Of a stretch of DNA of 64,000 nucleotides, positions 56,873 through 63,660 are shown piece by piece (the stretch's first letter is position 1; each line of letters starts with the position of its first letter). Made by a program: the position numbers and the translations under genes. The notes beneath the pieces are model-generated. The model ran no database searches, was not told the DNA's origin, and saw only the letters and a list, made by a program, of their open reading frames with translations. This DNA comes from an uncultured delta proteobacterium (GTDB lineage: Bacteria; Myxococcota; Myxococcia; Myxococcales; Myxococcaceae): positions 64,001 through 128,000 of the forward strand of contig CAVZMH010000018.1 in NCBI GenBank assembly GCA_963776345.1, written 5' to 3'.

Positions 56873-59347
56873 TCAGCGGCGCCCGCGGACGTTCTGGGTG
56901 AGTCGAAGGACGTCGGCGAGCACGCCCGCGGCGGTGACGTCGCCCCCGGCGCCCGCGCCGCGGACGATGAGCGGGTAGTCCTGGTAGCGGGCGGTGGTGA
57001 ACGCCACCAGCGCCTCGGCCCCGCGCAGCGGCACCGCGGGGTGCCCGGCGTCGACCGCCACCGGCCCGACGTGCACCCTCGGTCCCTCCGCCCCGGGGAC
57101 GATCTGCACCAGGTAGCGGAGCGTCCGCCCCGCGGCCGCGTACCGGGCCACCTGCGCCGCGAAGGCCTCGTCGTGCGCCACGAGCTGCCGGAGGAAGCGC
57201 TCCGGATCGTCCTCGACCAGGAGCGCCGCGTCGACGAACGGCTCGACCGCCACGTCCGCCAGCTCGATCTGGAGCCCGAGCTCGCGCGCGAGGATGAGCG
57301 CCTTCCGGGCCACGTCGAGGCCGGACAGGTCGTCGCGCGGGTGCGGCTCGGTGTAGCCGCGGTCGCGCGCGGTGCGCACCGCGACCGAGAGCGGCGTCCC
57401 GGCCATCACCTGCTGGCAGAGGAAGCCCAGCGTGCCGGAGAGGCTGCCGTCGATGCGCTCCACGACGTCACCGGTGGCCACCAGGTTCTTCAGCGTCTCG
57501 ATGACCGGCAGGCCCGCGCCCACCGTCGTCTCGTAGTGCCAGGCCCGGAAGTGCTGCCGCGCGACGTCGAACACCTCTGCCCGGCGCCCCGCTGGCAGCG
57601 CCAGCGGCTTCTTGTTCGCCGCGACCACGTGGATGCCGCGCCGGAAGGCCTCCACGTACAGCGCCTCCATGCCGTCGGCGGCGGTGCAGTCCACCAGCAC
57701 CGGCACGGGCAGGCGCGACAGGCGGTCCAGGAGCTGCGCCATGACGGGCGGGGAGGCGGTCGGCGCGCTGGAGCGCGGTGGGAGCTGGGAGGGGATGAGC
57801 CCCCGGGGGTCGACGTGCGCCCCGTGGCGATCCACCACCCCGAACAGCCGGGTGGCGACGCCCTGGCGAGCCCGCAGCGACTCGCGCGTCGCCTCGAGCT
57901 GGGCCAGGAATCGCCCGCCCACCGTGCCCCGGCCGAGCAGGAGCACGTTCACCTCGGTCTCGGCGAGGTTGAACGCCGCGTGCACCGTCCGCACCGCCTC
58001 CGCGGTGTCGGCGGCGTCCACCACGCAGCCGATGCTCCGGGAGCTCGCACCCTGGGCGATCGCCCGCACGTTGATGCCCACGTTCCCCAGCGCGCCGAAG
58101 AAGCGGCCGGCGACGTTCGGCCAGTGCCCCATCGCCTCGGCCACCAGGCTCACCAGGGACACCGGCTCGCGGGCTGGGGGCAGCTCCACCTCCCCCCCGG
58201 CGAGCAGGTCGGCCAGCGCCGTCTCGAGCACCGTGCGCGCGCGCCCCGCCTCCGCGACGTCCACCACCGCCGCCAGGCTCTGGCCGTGGCCCGACTGGGT
58301 GACCATCCAGACCCGGATCCGCCCCTCCTCCAGCGCCGAGAGGACCCGGACGGCGAGCGACGTCTCGGGCGCCGGCAGGCGCGACTCCACCGCCAGGAGC
58401 GCCAGCTCCTCGAGACTCGTGACGCAGGTGGGCCGGTGCGGATCCGGGTTCCCCTGCGCGTCGATGACCGTGCCCTCGCCGCCGTCCACCGTGCTGCGGA
58501 TCCGCAGGCGCGCCCCGCTCTGCTCGAGCGGGAGCACCGTGCGGCGGTGGAACATGCGCAGCCCGAAGTGCGCCAGCTCCTGCGCCTCGTGCCAGGTGAG
58601 CCGAGGCACCGGGTAGGCCTCCTCGACCAATCCCGGGTCGGCGGTCATGACGCCCGACACGTCGGTCCAGATGGTCACCTCGGCGGCGCCGAGCAGGGCG
58701 GCCAGCGTGGTGGCGGCGTAGTCCGAGCCGTTTCGCCCCAGGGTGGTCGTGGAGCCGTCCGGCGCCCGGCCGATGAAGCCGGTCACCACCGGGATCTGCT
58801 GCTCCCACTGCGCGCGGCGCTCGAGCACCGGGCGCAGGCTGGCACCGAGGTCCACGCTCGCGTCCCCGTGCCGGTCGTCGGTCCGGAAGACCTCGCGTGC
58901 GTCCACCGCCAGCCCGGGCAGTCCCGCCGACCGCAGCGCCGCGGCCACCAGCCGCGACGACAGCCGCTCCCCCACCGAGAGGAGCAGATCGAGCGCGGCG
59001 GGCGAGGGGGCGCGGGCTGCGACCAGGGCGGAGAGCGCGCCGGCGCCGTCGGCGGCGATCTCACTCCAGGGCCGCTCCAGCTCGGCGAGCGCCCCGGGAG
59101 CGAGCACCTCGGCGCCGCGCGTGCGGGCCAGCTCGAGCGCCCGCTCCAGCCCGGCGCGCGCCTGGACCTCGTCGCCCCCAGCGGCGGCCCGGCCTGCCTC
59201 GAGCAGCCACTCGGTCGTGTCGCCGAGCGCGCTGACCACCAGGGCCAGCGGCCGCTCGGCCTCGGCCACCCGGCGGAGCACGACCGGGAGCCGGCCGGGT
59301 GCGCCGAGCGACGAGCCGCCGAACTTGTACACCTGCCACGGACTCAT
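56873..59347 (-). CDS. Bifunctional aspartokinase/homoserine dehydrogenase (ThrA/MetL-like)
   Basis: KFGGSS, LGRNGSDY, ACT domains, GRGTVG, ANKK, YETTVGAGLP, EPHPRDDLSG, GAGAGGDVTA. Confidence 0.95.
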   Translation of the reverse strand: MSPWQVYKFGGSSLGAPGRLPVVLRRVAEAERPLALVVSALGDTTEWLLEAGRAAAGGDEVQARAGLERALELARTRGAEVLAPGALAELERPWSEIAADGAGALSALVAARAPSPAALDLLLSVGERLSSRLVAAALRSAGLPGLAVDAREVFRTDDRHGDASVDLGASLRPVLERRAQWEQQIPVVTGFIGRAPDGSTTTLGRNGSDYAATTLAALLGAAEVTIWTDVSGVMTADPGLVEEAYPVPRLTWHEAQELAHFGLRMFHRRTVLPLEQSGARLRIRSTVDGGEGTVIDAQGNPDPHRPTCVTSLEELALLAVESRLPAPETSLAVRVLSALEEGRIRVWMVTQSGHGQSLAAVVDVAEAGRARTVLETALADLLAGGEVELPPAREPVSLVSLVAEAMGHWPNVAGRFFGALGNVGINVRAIAQGASSRSIGCVVDAADTAEAVRTVHAAFNLAETEVNVLLLGRGTVGGRFLAQLEATRESLRARQGVATRLFGVVDRHGAHVDPRGLIPSQLPPRSSAPTASPPVMAQLLDRLSRLPVPVLVDCTAADGMEALYVEAFRRGIHVVAANKKPLALPAGRRAEVFDVARQHFRAWHYETTVGAGLPVIETLKNLVATGDVVERIDGSLSGTLGFLCQQVMAGTPLSVAVRTARDRGYTEPHPRDDLSGLDVARKALILARELGLQIELADVAVEPFVDAALLVEDDPERFLRQLVAHDEAFAAQVARYAAAGRTLRYLVQIVPGAEGPRVHVGPVAVDAGHPAVPLRGAEALVAFTTARYQDYPLIVRGAGAGGDVTAAGVLADVLRLTQNVRGRR

Positions 59348-60492
59348 GGGGTGCTCCCGACGGCCAGGCGGACCAGCGGATCCAGCGCGTCCCACTCGAT
59401 GAGGAAGGCGTCGTGCCCGTGCGGGCTCCGCACGGTGGCCCGGCGCGCCTCGGCGCCGTGCGCGGTCAGCCAGTCGGCCAGCACGTCGACCTGGGCCGGG
59501 GTGAAGAGCTGATCGGTGTCGATGTCCACGCAGAGGGCGAACGCCCCCAGCGGCCCGCCCGGCGTCCCCGGCGGGGGCGCGTCGAGGTCGTGGGTGTCCA
59601 TCGCCTCGAGCTGGAGCAGGTAGGCCCGGGCGTCGAACCGCCGCCGGAGCTTCTTGCCCTGGTGCTCGAGGTAGCTCTGGACGGGCAGCGTCCAGGGCGC
59701 CTCCGGAGGCCGTCCGGCGCGCCGGTGCTGCCGCGCATCGAGCGACGGCTCGGCGCGGTAGGTCAGCATCGCCAGCTGGCGGGCGAGCTCCAGGCCCCGG
59801 CTCACGTCCGATGGCCAGCCCGGGTCGAGCCGGAGGATCTGCCGCTGCACGTGGTTCCACCCGGTGACCCAGGCGCTCGAGGCGCTCGAGGTGCCGATGG
59901 GCAGGAGGCGCTCCACCGCCCCCGGGCGGAGCACCGGGAGGCAGAGGGCGATCATCCCCCCGAGCGACGCGCCGGTGGCGAGGCGGAGCCGGGGAACCCC
60001 GAGCACGTCCAGGAGCGCCCACAGCGCCCGGGTCTGGTCCCACGGCGTGAGCCGCGCGAGGCCGTCCGGCCAGCCAGCGTCGAGCGGTCCCGAGCTCCCG
60101 TAGCAGCTGCCCAGGTTGTTGGCGCAGAGCACGCGGACGCGCGCCGGGTCGAGCGGCCGGCCCGGGCCGATGAGCGGCGCCCACCAGCCGTCCGGGCCCG
60201 CGGCCCGGGCGTCCCCGGTGAGCGCGTGGATGACCAGCACCGTCGGGACCGCTGGATCCAGCCCTGCGCCGGCCCCCGCCCGCAGCGGCACGGAGCGCGC
60301 CACCGGCTCCGCGGCCTCCGGGCTCACCTGCGTTCCCAGGCGCTCCAGGACGGGGAGGTCCGTCTCCGGCCCCCACCACTGCACCCGGGCGTGGTGGGGG
60401 TCCACCGTGGCCCCGCCGAGCAGGGTCAGCGGCGGAAGCCGCAGGTCGAAGAGCCGCGGGGAGGCCGCGGCGCTGGGGCGGGCGCCGGCCAT
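59344..60492 (-). CDS. metX: Homoserine O-acyltransferase (MetX family)
   Basis: HALTGD, LGSCYGSSGP, GASLGGM nucleophile, GHDAFL. Confidence 0.9.
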   Translation of the reverse strand: MAGARPSAAASPRLFDLRLPPLTLLGGATVDPHHARVQWWGPETDLPVLERLGTQVSPEAAEPVARSVPLRAGAGAGLDPAVPTVLVIHALTGDARAAGPDGWWAPLIGPGRPLDPARVRVLCANNLGSCYGSSGPLDAGWPDGLARLTPWDQTRALWALLDVLGVPRLRLATGASLGGMIALCLPVLRPGAVERLLPIGTSSASSAWVTGWNHVQRQILRLDPGWPSDVSRGLELARQLAMLTYRAEPSLDARQHRRAGRPPEAPWTLPVQSYLEHQGKKLRRRFDARAYLLQLEAMDTHDLDAPPPGTPGGPLGAFALCVDIDTDQLFTPAQVDVLADWLTAHGAEARRATVRSPHGHDAFLIEWDALDPLVRLAVGSTP

Positions 60493-60496
60493 CACG

Positions 60497-61864
<1,368 letters not shown>

Positions 61865-62003
61865 TCACTCGACGGCAGAAGAAGGAAACGTCAGCGAGTC
61901 TTCGTTGCGGGACTCAGGGACGCCGCTTCGACCCCGGGGAGGAGACCACCGTCTCCAGTCGGCCCCGGGCGTACGCCCCTGATCGTTCGGGAGAGGAGGT
62001 CGG

Positions 62004-62114
62004 TCAGCAACAGCACCGACAACAACACTCCCCCGCGACGGAGCGTCCGCCCGGGCCACGCATGGGCGTGGCCCCGCCGCGAATTCGCCCCATCTGGGAA
62101 GTGCTCTTCCTCAC
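62004..62114 (-). CDS. Poly-cysteine leader peptide (36 aa, ends ECCCRCCC), candidate attenuator uORF
   Basis: GTG AGG AAG ... GAG TGT TGT TGT CGG TGC TGT TGC TGA read on the minus strand; in-frame ATGs at 62093 and 62063; lies between the promoter and metY. Confidence 0.72.
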   Translation of the reverse strand: MRKSTSQMGRIRGGATPMRGPGGRSVAGECCCRCCC

Positions 62115-62122
62115 GGGCACGG

Positions 62123-62152
62123 ACGGTAATGACCGCCCGCGTCAGCTGTCAA
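62123..62152 (-). promoter_or_regulatory. Sigma70-type promoter of the leader-metY operon
   Basis: TTGACA (62152-62147), 18 nt, TACCGT (62128-62123). Confidence 0.65.
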
Positions 62153-63660
62153 GCGCGGGCCCGCTTGCCCCGGGATTTCCACACCTTCGCCATCCAGCGC
62201 TCGACGTCCGACGCCTCGCTGGGGATGTCGGCGGAGAGGTTCCGCACGCCCCGGGGGGTGACCACGACGTCGTCCTCGATGCGCACGCCGATGCCCCGGT
62301 ACCGGGCAGGGACGGTCAGGTCGTCGGTCTGGAAGTAGAGGCCCGGCTCCACGGTGAGCACCATCCCGGGCTTGAGCTGACCGAGCTTGTAGGCCTCGGT
62401 GCGGGCCTGGGCGCAGTCGTGCACGTCCAGCCCGAGCATGTGGCTCACGTTGTGGAGCGAGTAGCGCTTGTAGAACTGGTTCTGGTCGGCCAGCGCCACC
62501 GCCGCGTCCTCGAGGATGCCCAGGCGCTCCAGCCCCTCCGCCAGCACCTTCATCGCCGCGCGGTTCGGGTCGAGGAAGTCCTTCCCCGGCTTCACCTCGG
62601 CGAAGGCCGCGGCCTGGGCCGCGTGCACCAGCTCGTAGATCTCCCGCTGCTCGCGGCTGAAGCGCCCGGAGACGGGCAGAGTGCGGGTGATGTCCGCGGT
62701 GTAGAGGGAGTGCGCCTCGACACCCGCGTCGAGCAGGAGCAAGGTCCCTGGCCGCACGTCTCCCTCGTTCTTCACCCAGTGGAGGATGCAGGCGTGCTCG
62801 CCGGCGGCGGCGATGGTGTTGTACCCGATGTCGTTGCCCTCCACCCTGGCGCGCAGGTTGAAGATGCCCTCCACCTCGCGCTCGTGGCGGGCGGTGCGCA
62901 GCCCGGCGATGACGTCCTCGAAGCCGCGCTTGGTCGAGGCGATGGCCGCGGACAGCTCGCGGACCTCCTGCGCGTCCTTGATCAGCCGCATCTCGGAGAG
63001 CGCCGTGGCGAGCTCCTTGTCGCGCAGGGTCTCCTCCAGCGCCCTGTCCGCCGCAGGGCTCATGCCGCGAAGCACGCGCACCGGCCGGGTCGCTGGACCG
63101 CGCAGCGTCGCCAGGGCCGCCGGGAGCTCGGCCAGCGCGCGCGCCTGGTGCACGTCGAAGCGGGCCTGGCTCTGGGGGACGCCCAGACGCGGGCCCACCC
63201 ACAGCTCGCCCTTGTTCCGGTCGGTGAAGAACGTCGAGTCGCTCTTGCCGGGGTTGGGCTCGACGAAGAGCACGTCGCGGTGCCCGCCGCCGGCCTCCGG
63301 CACCATCATCAGCACGCAGTCGGGCTCGAGGTTGCCGGTGAGGTAGTAGAAGTCGGTCCCCGGGCGGAACCGGTAGAAGGTGTCGTTGGCCCGCACCTTC
63401 TCGTGCCCGGTGGGAATGACCAGCGTCTCGCCGGGGAAGAGCTGCGAGAGCGCGCGCCGCCGGGCGGCGAAGGCGGCCGCGTTCCGGATCTTCGGCGGCA
63501 TCCGGGTGCTGGCCGGCTTCCAGTCCCGCACCATGAACTCGAGCAGCGCCGGGGGTGGCGCCGTGTCGTGCGTCGCCGGCTTGGCCGCGGGCTCGGCAGG
63601 AGCCGGCTCCGCGGTCCGCGAGCGGGCGACCTCGGCGGGAGTGGTCGGGGGGTGTGCCAT
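62149..63660 (-). CDS. pepP: Xaa-Pro aminopeptidase (M24B)
   Basis: LLDAG, ADITRT, HMLGLDVHD, TVEPGLY, GVRIEDD. Confidence 0.95.
   Translation of the reverse strand: MAHPPTTPAEVARSRTAEPAPAEPAAKPATHDTAPPPALLEFMVRDWKPASTRMPPKIRNAAAFAARRRALSQLFPGETLVIPTGHEKVRANDTFYRFRPGTDFYYLTGNLEPDCVLMMVPEAGGGHRDVLFVEPNPGKSDSTFFTDRNKGELWVGPRLGVPQSQARFDVHQARALAELPAALATLRGPATRPVRVLRGMSPAADRALEETLRDKELATALSEMRLIKDAQEVRELSAAIASTKRGFEDVIAGLRTARHEREVEGIFNLRARVEGNDIGYNTIAAAGEHACILHWVKNEGDVRPGTLLLLDAGVEAHSLYTADITRTLPVSGRFSREQREIYELVHAAQAAAFAEVKPGKDFLDPNRAAMKVLAEGLERLGILEDAAVALADQNQFYKRYSLHNVSHMLGLDVHDCAQARTEAYKLGQLKPGMVLTVEPGLYFQTDDLTVPARYRGIGVRIEDDVVVTPRGVRNLSADIPSEASDVERWMAKVWKSRGKRARA

Follow-up and report, generated by a model that had tools for sequence, protein, structure and literature searches.

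Leader peptides such as trpL, hisL, thrL and ilvL are the classical transcription attenuators, and thrL senses two amino acids. Methionine genes are, by textbook account, controlled by SAM riboswitches, T-boxes and repressors. The accessible text of PMC4239095 describes MetJ, MetR, SahR, SamR, riboswitches and the metXZ RNA as regulators of these genes and mentions neither attenuation nor the Myxococcales; metY is absent from the accessible text of PMC2965389. For Actinobacteria, leaders with runs of cysteine codons were predicted by comparative genomics in PMC1262725; according to its accessible text, methionine operons are not preceded by a conserved RNA element. The closest described systems are the mycobacterial polycysteine sORFs (Ms5788A, Rv2334A), which according to the accessible part of 10.1101/834739 are short 5'-most ORFs with an RUG start near the -10 box, as is the leader ORF described here. 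In the literature searched, Cys-run leaderless attenuators were demonstrated only in mycobacteria, and ribosome attenuation on Met codons, or on Met and Cys codons together, was not found. A Met/Cys leader upstream of metY was likewise not found; subscription papers and supplements lay outside this search. A 2010 attenuation survey from the Lyubetsky group could reportedly hold such predictions.

The window, by which we mean the whole 64,000-nucleotide stretch analyzed, belongs to a myxobacterial genome of the family Myxococcaceae. An original prediction had placed a probably leaderless poly-Cys uORF upstream of a metY-metX-AK/HSDH operon in this window and had interpreted it as a ribosome-stalling cysteine sensor. 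Comparison with related leaders suggests that the conserved uORF is likely a ribosome-stalling attenuator, which would report shortage of methionine and cysteine to the operon.

The leader ORF in the window

The minus-strand layout TTGACA-N18-TACCGT, 8 nt and GTG was borne out (62152-62147, 62128-62123 and 62114). The GTG opens a 36-codon ORF, MRKSTSQMGRIRGGATPMRGPGGRSVAGECCCRCCC, spanning 62114-62004 with a TGA stop at 62006-62004, and a second in-frame GTG is located 5' of it, at 62120. The C-terminus reads ECCCRCCC, encoded in the tail by TGT TGT TGT CGG TGC TGT TGC; six of the final seven codons are Cys (four TGT, two TGC), as had been noted. In a six-frame census of the whole genome, comprising 99,290 stop-preceding frames of at least 7 codons, six Cys in the last seven codons occurred in the uORF alone, five in none and four in 8 frames, so this is the sole frame with at least five. 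The statement that TGT stands out in this GC-rich DNA also held, TGT representing 9.4% (682/7,250) of the Cys codons in 1,381 long ORFs of the genome. The poly-Cys observation is thus confirmed and goes beyond chance. In total, the window allele contains six Cys and two internal Met codons, one core Met having been replaced by Thr. The features of the locus are summarized in Table 1.

Table 1. Coordinates of the leader ORF, the putative regulatory elements and the downstream genes in the window
Feature	Position	Strand	Remark
-35-like TTGACA	62147..62152	-	overlaps TGA stop of upstream Xaa-Pro aminopeptidase gene; putative promoter element
-10-like TACCGT	62123..62128	-	8 nt 5' of GTG; TAnnnT context common to second poly-Cys uORF
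Met/Cys leader ORF (GTG...TGA)	62004..62114	-	36 codons; conservation, in-frame gaps
Met8 codon	62091..62093	-	ATG in 10/12 same-genus uORFs
Met-x-Met core, here Thr-Pro-Met	62061..62069	-	M-x-M in 68/69 family uORFs
Arm 1 (G-P-G codons), outer stem with arm 2	62048..62057	-	pairs invariant, 21 distinct rows; predicted
Cys tail and stop	62004..62027	-	Cys codons mostly in predicted loops round short stop-spanning stem
C-rich post-stop strand	61988..62003	-	3' side of inner stems; possible Rho loading site
Arm 2	61961..61971	-	pairs with arm 1, local hairpin or arm 3b; predicted
Alternative local hairpin	61914..61982	-	minimum-energy structure; predicted to capture arm 2 when uORF is covered
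Pyrimidine tract, anti-SD candidate	61878..61889	-	complementary to metY ribosome-binding site
Arm 3b	61846..61858	-	alignment conservation; putative partner of arm 2 or post-stop strand
metY Shine-Dalgarno GAAGGAG	61797..61803	-	read from sequence
metY, O-acetylhomoserine/O-acetylserine sulfhydrylase family	60497..61789	-	TIGR01326 654.6 bits vs cut-off 495.1
metX-like acyltransferase (HALTG)	59344..60495	-	TIGR01392 230 bits, cut-off 500
Bifunctional aspartate kinase/homoserine dehydrogenase	56873..59347	-	NF006959 675.6 bits (cut-off 726); TIGR00657 over cut-off

The promoter is a putative one, and the overlap of TTGACA with the aminopeptidase stop makes read-through from the aminopeptidase gene possible. 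A consensus promoter scan left the window promoter uncalled, TACCGT giving 3/6 matches. Of the 69 family members, 68 have a TTGAC 37-41 nt before the uORF start and the remaining one has it at 45 nt; the start codon follows TAnnnT after 8 nt in the window and after 8-11 nt across the genus. Such spacing implies a putative leader of 0-2 nt here and of up to about 5 nt in relatives. The RNA evidence comprised 24 runs, all in the form of contigs with RNA shares of at most 0.15; four were compared with 61300-62300, where the only coverage of the leader came from one low-depth relative's contig near 61980-62047, and assembled contigs cannot reveal starts. An imperfect inverted repeat, a possible operator, was observed astride the -10 box (62120-62139, minus strand). 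Some relatives, such as L009 and L010, have perfect 8-bp arms in this repeat.

The uORF stop is separated from the metY start by 214 nt. The assignment of the operon as metY-metX-AK/HSDH stood for metY, which scored over the TIGR01326 cut-off; the metX-like and AK-HSDH (NF006959) matches remained below theirs. The metX-like protein contains HALTG, which we take to be the mark of homoserine-type MetX. The uORF heads a methionine operon in which MetY is of the OAH/OAS sulfhydrylase subfamily, and cysteine may be made via homocysteine. PAPS reductase gave no match in the 98%-complete window genome and no CysE scored over the cut-off (best 33.6 vs 210 bits); the genome seems to lack both CysE and sulfate reduction. 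MetH, a CBS-like protein and a cystathionine synthase/lyase-family protein are present, as is Rho. The metH model match is split (model positions 2-87 and 86-1182, C20:63609-67038), possibly by a frameshift. Homocysteine from MetX/MetY could supply both methionine and cysteine, which would make sensing of both amino acids meaningful.

Conservation of the leader in the genus and the family

A metY orthologue was identified in all 13 genomes of the genus, the window genome included, and the uORF in 12 of them. The one locus without it (L017, from a genome that is 68% complete) has a different context. The 12 uORFs are 34-37 codons long and start with GTG (7) or ATG (5), 38-41 nt from TTGACA. All four gap blocks inside the uORF were 3 nt long, as compared to multiples of three in only 4 of 26 gap blocks 3' of the stop. 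The tail consists of ECC, then R, C or V, then C-C or C-R, with 3-6 Cys per uORF, and its codons display synonymous TGT/TGC swaps and also TGT/CGT (Arg) swaps. Replacement of Cys by Arg (CGT/CGC) is frequent and has left some relatives with only two adjacent Cys; the window allele has the most Cys and the longest Cys run of its genus. The Met positions are kept as well as the Cys positions, with Met8 in 10 of 12 uORFs, Met16 in 11 (Thr in the window) and Met18 in all 12. The uORF is probably translated and putatively near-leaderless.

In the family Myxococcaceae, metY matches of E 1e-45 or better were obtained in 84 of 208 genomes; with the contig-end hits of G096 and G088 left out, the leader analysis covered 82 loci. 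A Met-rich uORF was present in the same slot in 69 of the 82, representing 12 genera; since kin are non-independent, these are counts and not tests. This tally required at least two internal Met, and three g34 loci and one TTG start were re-picked. When the first ORF of 15-45 codons located 36-42 nt after TTGAC was taken irrespective of composition, at least two internal Met were found in 65 of 74 ORFs. The nine other picks comprised six ORFs of genus g12, which contain neither Met nor Cys, and three ORFs that had been assigned wrongly because of a more distant TTGAC. The g12 ORFs serve as a negative control, showing that a start codon at the right spacing is not sufficient.

The composition of the 69 uORFs is strongly shared. 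M-x-M is found in 68, the sole exception being the window allele, and the pair sits just 5' of the pairing arm. Cys is represented at least once in 66 and absent from three, and 21 have a CC run at the C-terminus. ATG and GTG starts interchange, and the stops are TGA in 61, TAG in 7 and TAA in one. Met and Cys contribute 9-13% and 6-15% of the uORF codons, as compared to 1.4% and 0.9% genome-wide, an enrichment in pathway-product codons of the kind that classical attenuators require. The Cys run expected in relatives was found within the genus (12/13, with TGT/TGC swaps) but not family-wide, where the tail occurs in only 21/69. In four genera with differing flanks (ECCRRCC, ECCCGC, ECCPSCC and GCCCCCCC), the first two Cys are retained.

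Two types of leader were distinguished. Type A has 22-25 codons, e.g. MFVTSAMCMCSMPVPGG or CRMxMPSGG, and is followed by a hairpin of -22 to -28 kcal/mol, the 3' arm of which repeats the GGTGGGC arm of the ORF. Type B, which includes the window, has the pattern AMxMRGPG...ECC. At locus L071 (G100), the type A uORF is kept and the whole hairpin is gone (about 53 nt shorter), through natural deletion or assembly error. Among 160 genomes from outside the family, four reached the metY threshold of E 1e-52, one with a Met/Cys uORF (L271) and three with short leaders without one (L272-L274). In the more distant leaders L128, L129 and L271, the Cys/Met uORF precedes a U-tailed terminator with a run of 5-7 T, a homologue of the type A hairpin; in type A itself, the terminator is degenerate. 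In the U-tailed layout, which is that of a classical attenuator, a stall would prevent termination. Met/Cys-rich short ORFs were also observed before metY at L142, L147, L150 and L154, e.g. MSMWMCMMIPLGS. U-tailed hairpins are present at the first three, which are Ignavibacteria or Acidobacteriota records; L154, of the Eubacteriales, is Met-rich.

The 13 family leaders without the uORF include three with a SAM-I/IV riboswitch and eight, from g12 and g6, that are short. RF01725 (SAM-I/IV) was located in the uORF slot at L048, L054 and L057 (L013/L057). At these three loci, the riboswitch is followed by GGAGA and a tiny ORF, read by eye as MCRCYLP, MCCCRPPQR and MMCHPLN before the stop, possibly representing a SAM switch and a Cys/Met sensor in tandem. 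Several of the short g12 and g6 leaders carry ATC-N10-GAT-like palindromes. Palindromes of 16 bp that fit ATC-N10-GAT were observed upstream of metY at 16 family loci, e.g. L056, L059, L058, L094 and L102, in genera g6, g12, g30, g34 and g40, with or without a uORF. The accessible text of PMC4239095 gives this motif as the common SahR/SamR consensus, and the palindromes suggest an extra repressor layer. An operator scan of the window genome for such palindromes gave seven scattered near-matches.

Leaders of other sulfur genes

The window genome contains a second poly-Cys uORF (G000:C16 463992-463915, minus strand) of 25 codons, which ends in CCCCR and is free of internal Met. Its layout is TACCGT, 9 nt, GTG and MPRPSASACSLPGTGRAPARCCCCR up to the stop. 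It lies 87 nt 5' of a cysM-like gene (248 bits, under the cut-off) and a sulfurtransferase gene, and thus heads a cysteine-metabolism gene, as the polycysteine attenuator class requires. A blind scan for TAnnnT, a start codon and a short ORF returned 86 candidates, of which three were kept by composition; two of these were the metY and cysM-like leaders. At E 1e-90, the cysM-like gene was found in 19 of 208 genomes, only in the window genus and g44, the two main Cys-tailed genera. Its uORF (L278, L292-L309) is in frame in 18 of the 19, the Cys run of L292 being out of frame, and 17 of the 18 in-frame uORFs have no internal Met. Short inverted repeats were likewise observed around the -10 box of the cysM-like leaders.

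A pattern scan of metagenomes, keyed on the Met core and not on Cys, identified 81 loci. Twenty of these precede MetY (79-96% identity), with 2-5 Cys after the core in all, and include several duplicates. No metY-family gene was found downstream within the available DNA in 59 others, among them L192 and L258, which represent the same leader and have downstream DNA that is too little or unmatched. At L208 and L270, an M-x-M leader with 0 and 1 Cys, respectively, precedes a cystathionine gamma-synthase-like gene, which at L270 is a fragment too short to score. The codon content of the uORF thus tracks the downstream gene, with Cys before cysM-like genes, M-x-M before cystathionine-synthase-like genes and both before metY.

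Predicted RNA structure

RNAalifold predicted pairing between the 3' half of the uORF and the 45 nt that follow the stop. Over 21 distinct rows, this long hairpin was 92.6% paired; changes on both sides of a pair were seen 8 times, at only 2 of the 31 pairs. This covariation was reached by 0 of 500 shuffles but is inflated by relatedness. In alignment A1, rows L094 and L105 are offset by 26 nt and the consensus fold was used qualitatively only. Duplex z-scores were -2.0 to -4.2 in 22 genus-like leaders and weak, -0.9 to -1.8, in g44. The alternative local hairpin was 98% paired and is essentially invariant, and thus has no covariation support. The G-P-G codons, which are paired with arm 2, show no variation at third positions, and the 214 nt 3' of the uORF stop are highly conserved. 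ATGC...GCAT within the uORF is able to form a small hairpin. The models thus predict mutually exclusive hairpins that overlap the uORF, with thin covariation.

In 19 of 22 genus-like leaders, the sequence that pairs best with the Shine-Dalgarno (SD) region was located at -92 to -122. The anti-SD changes with the SD, GGAG being found with CUCC or UUCC in the genus and GGAC with GUCC in g44. Anti-SD z-scores were below -2 in just 12 of 34 leaders, and the window value of +0.7 is not significant. L107 and L208 were left out of the duplex and anti-SD scan and included in the SD-opening model. On the minus strand, a terminator scan detected no U-tailed intrinsic terminator in the interval from the uORF stop to metY; its one weak minus-strand hairpin lies inside the ORF. 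The post-stop C-over-G skew is only within the top 10% of genome windows, indicating a mildly C-rich spacer. The Rfam covariance models gave no match on the leader, only three chance-level hits with a best E of 0.99, and a known Rfam riboswitch was rejected for the window leader.

To model the ribosome, only the RNA ahead of it was folded. In 13 non-genus type B leaders, opening of the SD cost on average 5.1 kcal/mol when the ribosome was placed on the first core Met vs 7.7 kcal/mol when it was at the stop; the cost was lower by more than 1 kcal/mol in nine and reversed in none. L270, a compact switch with an 86-nt spacer, gave 3.3 vs 11.1 kcal/mol. The corresponding values for 20 leaders of the genus were 8.3 vs 9.3 kcal/mol, five being lower by more than 1 kcal/mol and two reversed, with 8.0 vs 8.8 in the window. 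A ribosome on the Cys tail resembled one at the stop (8.6 vs 9.3 and 7.5 vs 7.7 kcal/mol in the genus and non-genus sets). In the equilibrium models of the metY leaders, outside which kinetics and Rho fall, SD release by a Cys-tail stall was not observed. Neither did the cysM-like leaders display an SD switch in the folding model, and equilibrium folding with a ribosome block was flat for five of five genus sequences. Type A leaders showed dips of 1-3.5 kcal/mol near the Cys or first Met codons (14 leaders). Terminator-probability folding was uninformative, as the equilibrium favors the completed hairpin in almost every case. Overall, the models give modest structural support for a Met-core stall as the 'on' signal and suggest no clean switch in the genus of the window.

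Proposed mechanism and alternative explanations

In the mechanism that we propose, the transcript would start 0-2 nt before the GTG and be translated from its 5' end. A shortage of charged tRNA-Met would cause the ribosome to pause at Met8 or at the Met-x-Met core, freeing the 3' half of the uORF to form the long hairpin with the 45 nt past the stop; this hairpin would capture arm 2 and make the metY ribosome-binding site more accessible. Under a shortage of tRNA-Cys, the ribosome would sit on the Cys run, covering the inner stem and the beginning of the C-rich strand, and the operon would likewise be turned on, more likely by Rho exclusion or kinetic folding than by an equilibrium SD switch. 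Rho exclusion is our preferred guess for the Cys route because Rho is present and the spacer is mildly C-rich. If neither amino acid is in short supply, the ribosome would clear the ORF, arm 2 would fold locally, and the SD would be paired or the bare leader terminated.

The signal is where our reading departs from the original prediction, which was partly supported: it appears correct in invoking a ribosome sensor and too narrow on what is sensed. In favor of the sensor are the conserved, coding-like uORF, Cys codons that look sensory and the second poly-Cys uORF. That cysteine and not the end product is the signal was not sustained, as M-x-M occurs in 68/69 family uORFs, the Cys tail in 21/69, and three lack Cys; the signal is probably methionine plus cysteine. 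A Cys-only attenuator as in mycobacteria, with Met codons as passengers kept by RNA pairing, is therefore unlikely. It would account for the window allele, with its six Cys, two internal Met and lost first core Met, for the single internal Met of the close metagenome relative L225, for the potential ATGC...GCAT hairpin and for the sister poly-Cys leader in the same genome. Besides the family counts, the lack of Met in the cysM-like leaders argues against it, and the modelled SD opening is cheapest at or before the Met core. The converse, a Met-only attenuator in which the Cys run would have arisen incidentally, from a GU-rich strand or from general pausing at slow codons ahead of the stop, is decidedly unlikely. 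The TGT/CGT swaps, that is rare third-position T codons for Cys and Arg alike, are in line with it, as is the same anatomy with 0-1 Cys at L208 and L270, but the first two Cys are kept in four genera, with synonymous TGT/TGC changes and mostly unpaired. A further arrangement, in which a Met stall is on and a stall at the Cys tail blocks the 'on' hairpin and spares scarce sulfur from methionine, is quite unlikely. The tail does lie within the long hairpin, and a ribosome on it mimics the off state at the stop in suffix folding, so that a Cys stall may be repressive. However, the same tail geometry is found before the cysM-like/sulfurtransferase pair, which is expected to be induced by Cys shortage, and Cys and Met codons are intermixed 5' of the antiterminator arm in type A and the U-tailed homologues.

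Two explanations dispense with codon sensing. One is a nascent-peptide sensor, with R-G-P-G acting as an arrest motif like RAPG or RGPP, or with the Cys cluster sensing thiols or metals in the exit tunnel. MRGPG is near-invariant in the subtype of the window, and RAPG, RAPP and RGPP are known arrest cores in the accessible text of PMC12992588, which does not contain 'RGPG'. Replacement of Arg by His in L004, absence of the motif from type A and the invariant, arm 2-pairing third positions of the G-P-G codons, indicative of an RNA constraint, make this reading highly improbable. An arrest peptide of the RAPP type was rejected, since RGPG is not RAPP, RGPP, RAPG or RAGP and is absent from type A. 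Just as improbable is an untranslated structured RNA, i.e. a riboswitch for SAM or a sulfur metabolite, or a leader bound by a protein, the ORF being fortuitous. The high conservation over 214 nt past the stop, the g12 ATG at the same spacing without a conserved ORF and the riboswitches that occupy the slot in relatives fit such an RNA, but it is opposed by the lack of an Rfam match (best E 0.99), the in-frame indels, the start and stop codon swaps and a codon composition that fits the downstream gene.

An attenuator responding to both amino acids thus remains our preferred explanation. We extend it, tentatively and with some doubt, to a scheme in which the Myxococcaceae would control sulfur amino-acid synthesis through a whole family of ribosome sensors, near-leaderless and sharing a readable codon code. 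The same Met core would be coupled to three outputs (intrinsic terminator, SD sequestration and Rho) and be interchangeable with SAM-I/IV riboswitches; the window leader would be a two-input gate, with Met and Cys stalls at opposite hairpin ends and possibly of opposite signs. The natural variants, with Met only, Cys only or both, with or without a terminator, and with a riboswitch in the slot, make this logic testable. A puzzle is that a Met-sensing uORF itself has to initiate with methionine. Such a leader would explain the control of met genes in a family without an annotated element at this slot.

Comparison with known systems

The RF01725 riboswitches, the SahR/SamR operators and the metXZ RNA control the same genes, as far as the accessible sources describe, and the window leader has no Rfam match. 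As in the classical attenuators, the cognate codons precede an arm for which there is a competitor in pairing with a strand farther downstream. The U-tailed terminator of those systems is found in L128, L129 and L271 but not in the window or its subtype, and the window uORF differs further in having no Shine-Dalgarno sequence and in the sensed pair, which would be Met/Cys. The Cys-run leaders predicted in Actinobacteria likewise have Cys near the stop, no intrinsic terminator and polypyrimidine tracts as Rho sites, according to the accessible text of PMC1262725, in comparison to which the leaders described here add conserved alternative hairpins and Met codons.

The mycobacterial sORFs, as described in the accessible part of 10.1101/834739, share with the window uORF the consecutive Cys codons adjoining the stop and the pairing of the ORF with downstream RNA. 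Several leaders before sulfur genes in one genome are also common to mycobacteria and the window genome, and the cysM-like and sulfurtransferase genes of the second leader resemble the mycobacterial cysK1 and cysA2 (10.1101/834739). In contrast, the leader described here is from Myxococcota and precedes a methionine operon, and the word 'homoserine' is absent from the accessible text of 10.1101/834739. It also differs in the more widely conserved Met-x-Met core, in the 214-nt spacer, in having an anti-SD candidate only, and in the start codon 8-11 nt from the -10 box, because of which some members may not be strictly leaderless. Two Cys-run leaders in one Gram-negative genome would extend the 'ribulon' idea to another phylum. 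By analogy, the metY Met/Cys leader may best be viewed as a variant of ribosome-mediated attenuation that combines features of the mycobacterial sORFs with those of dual-amino-acid leaders.
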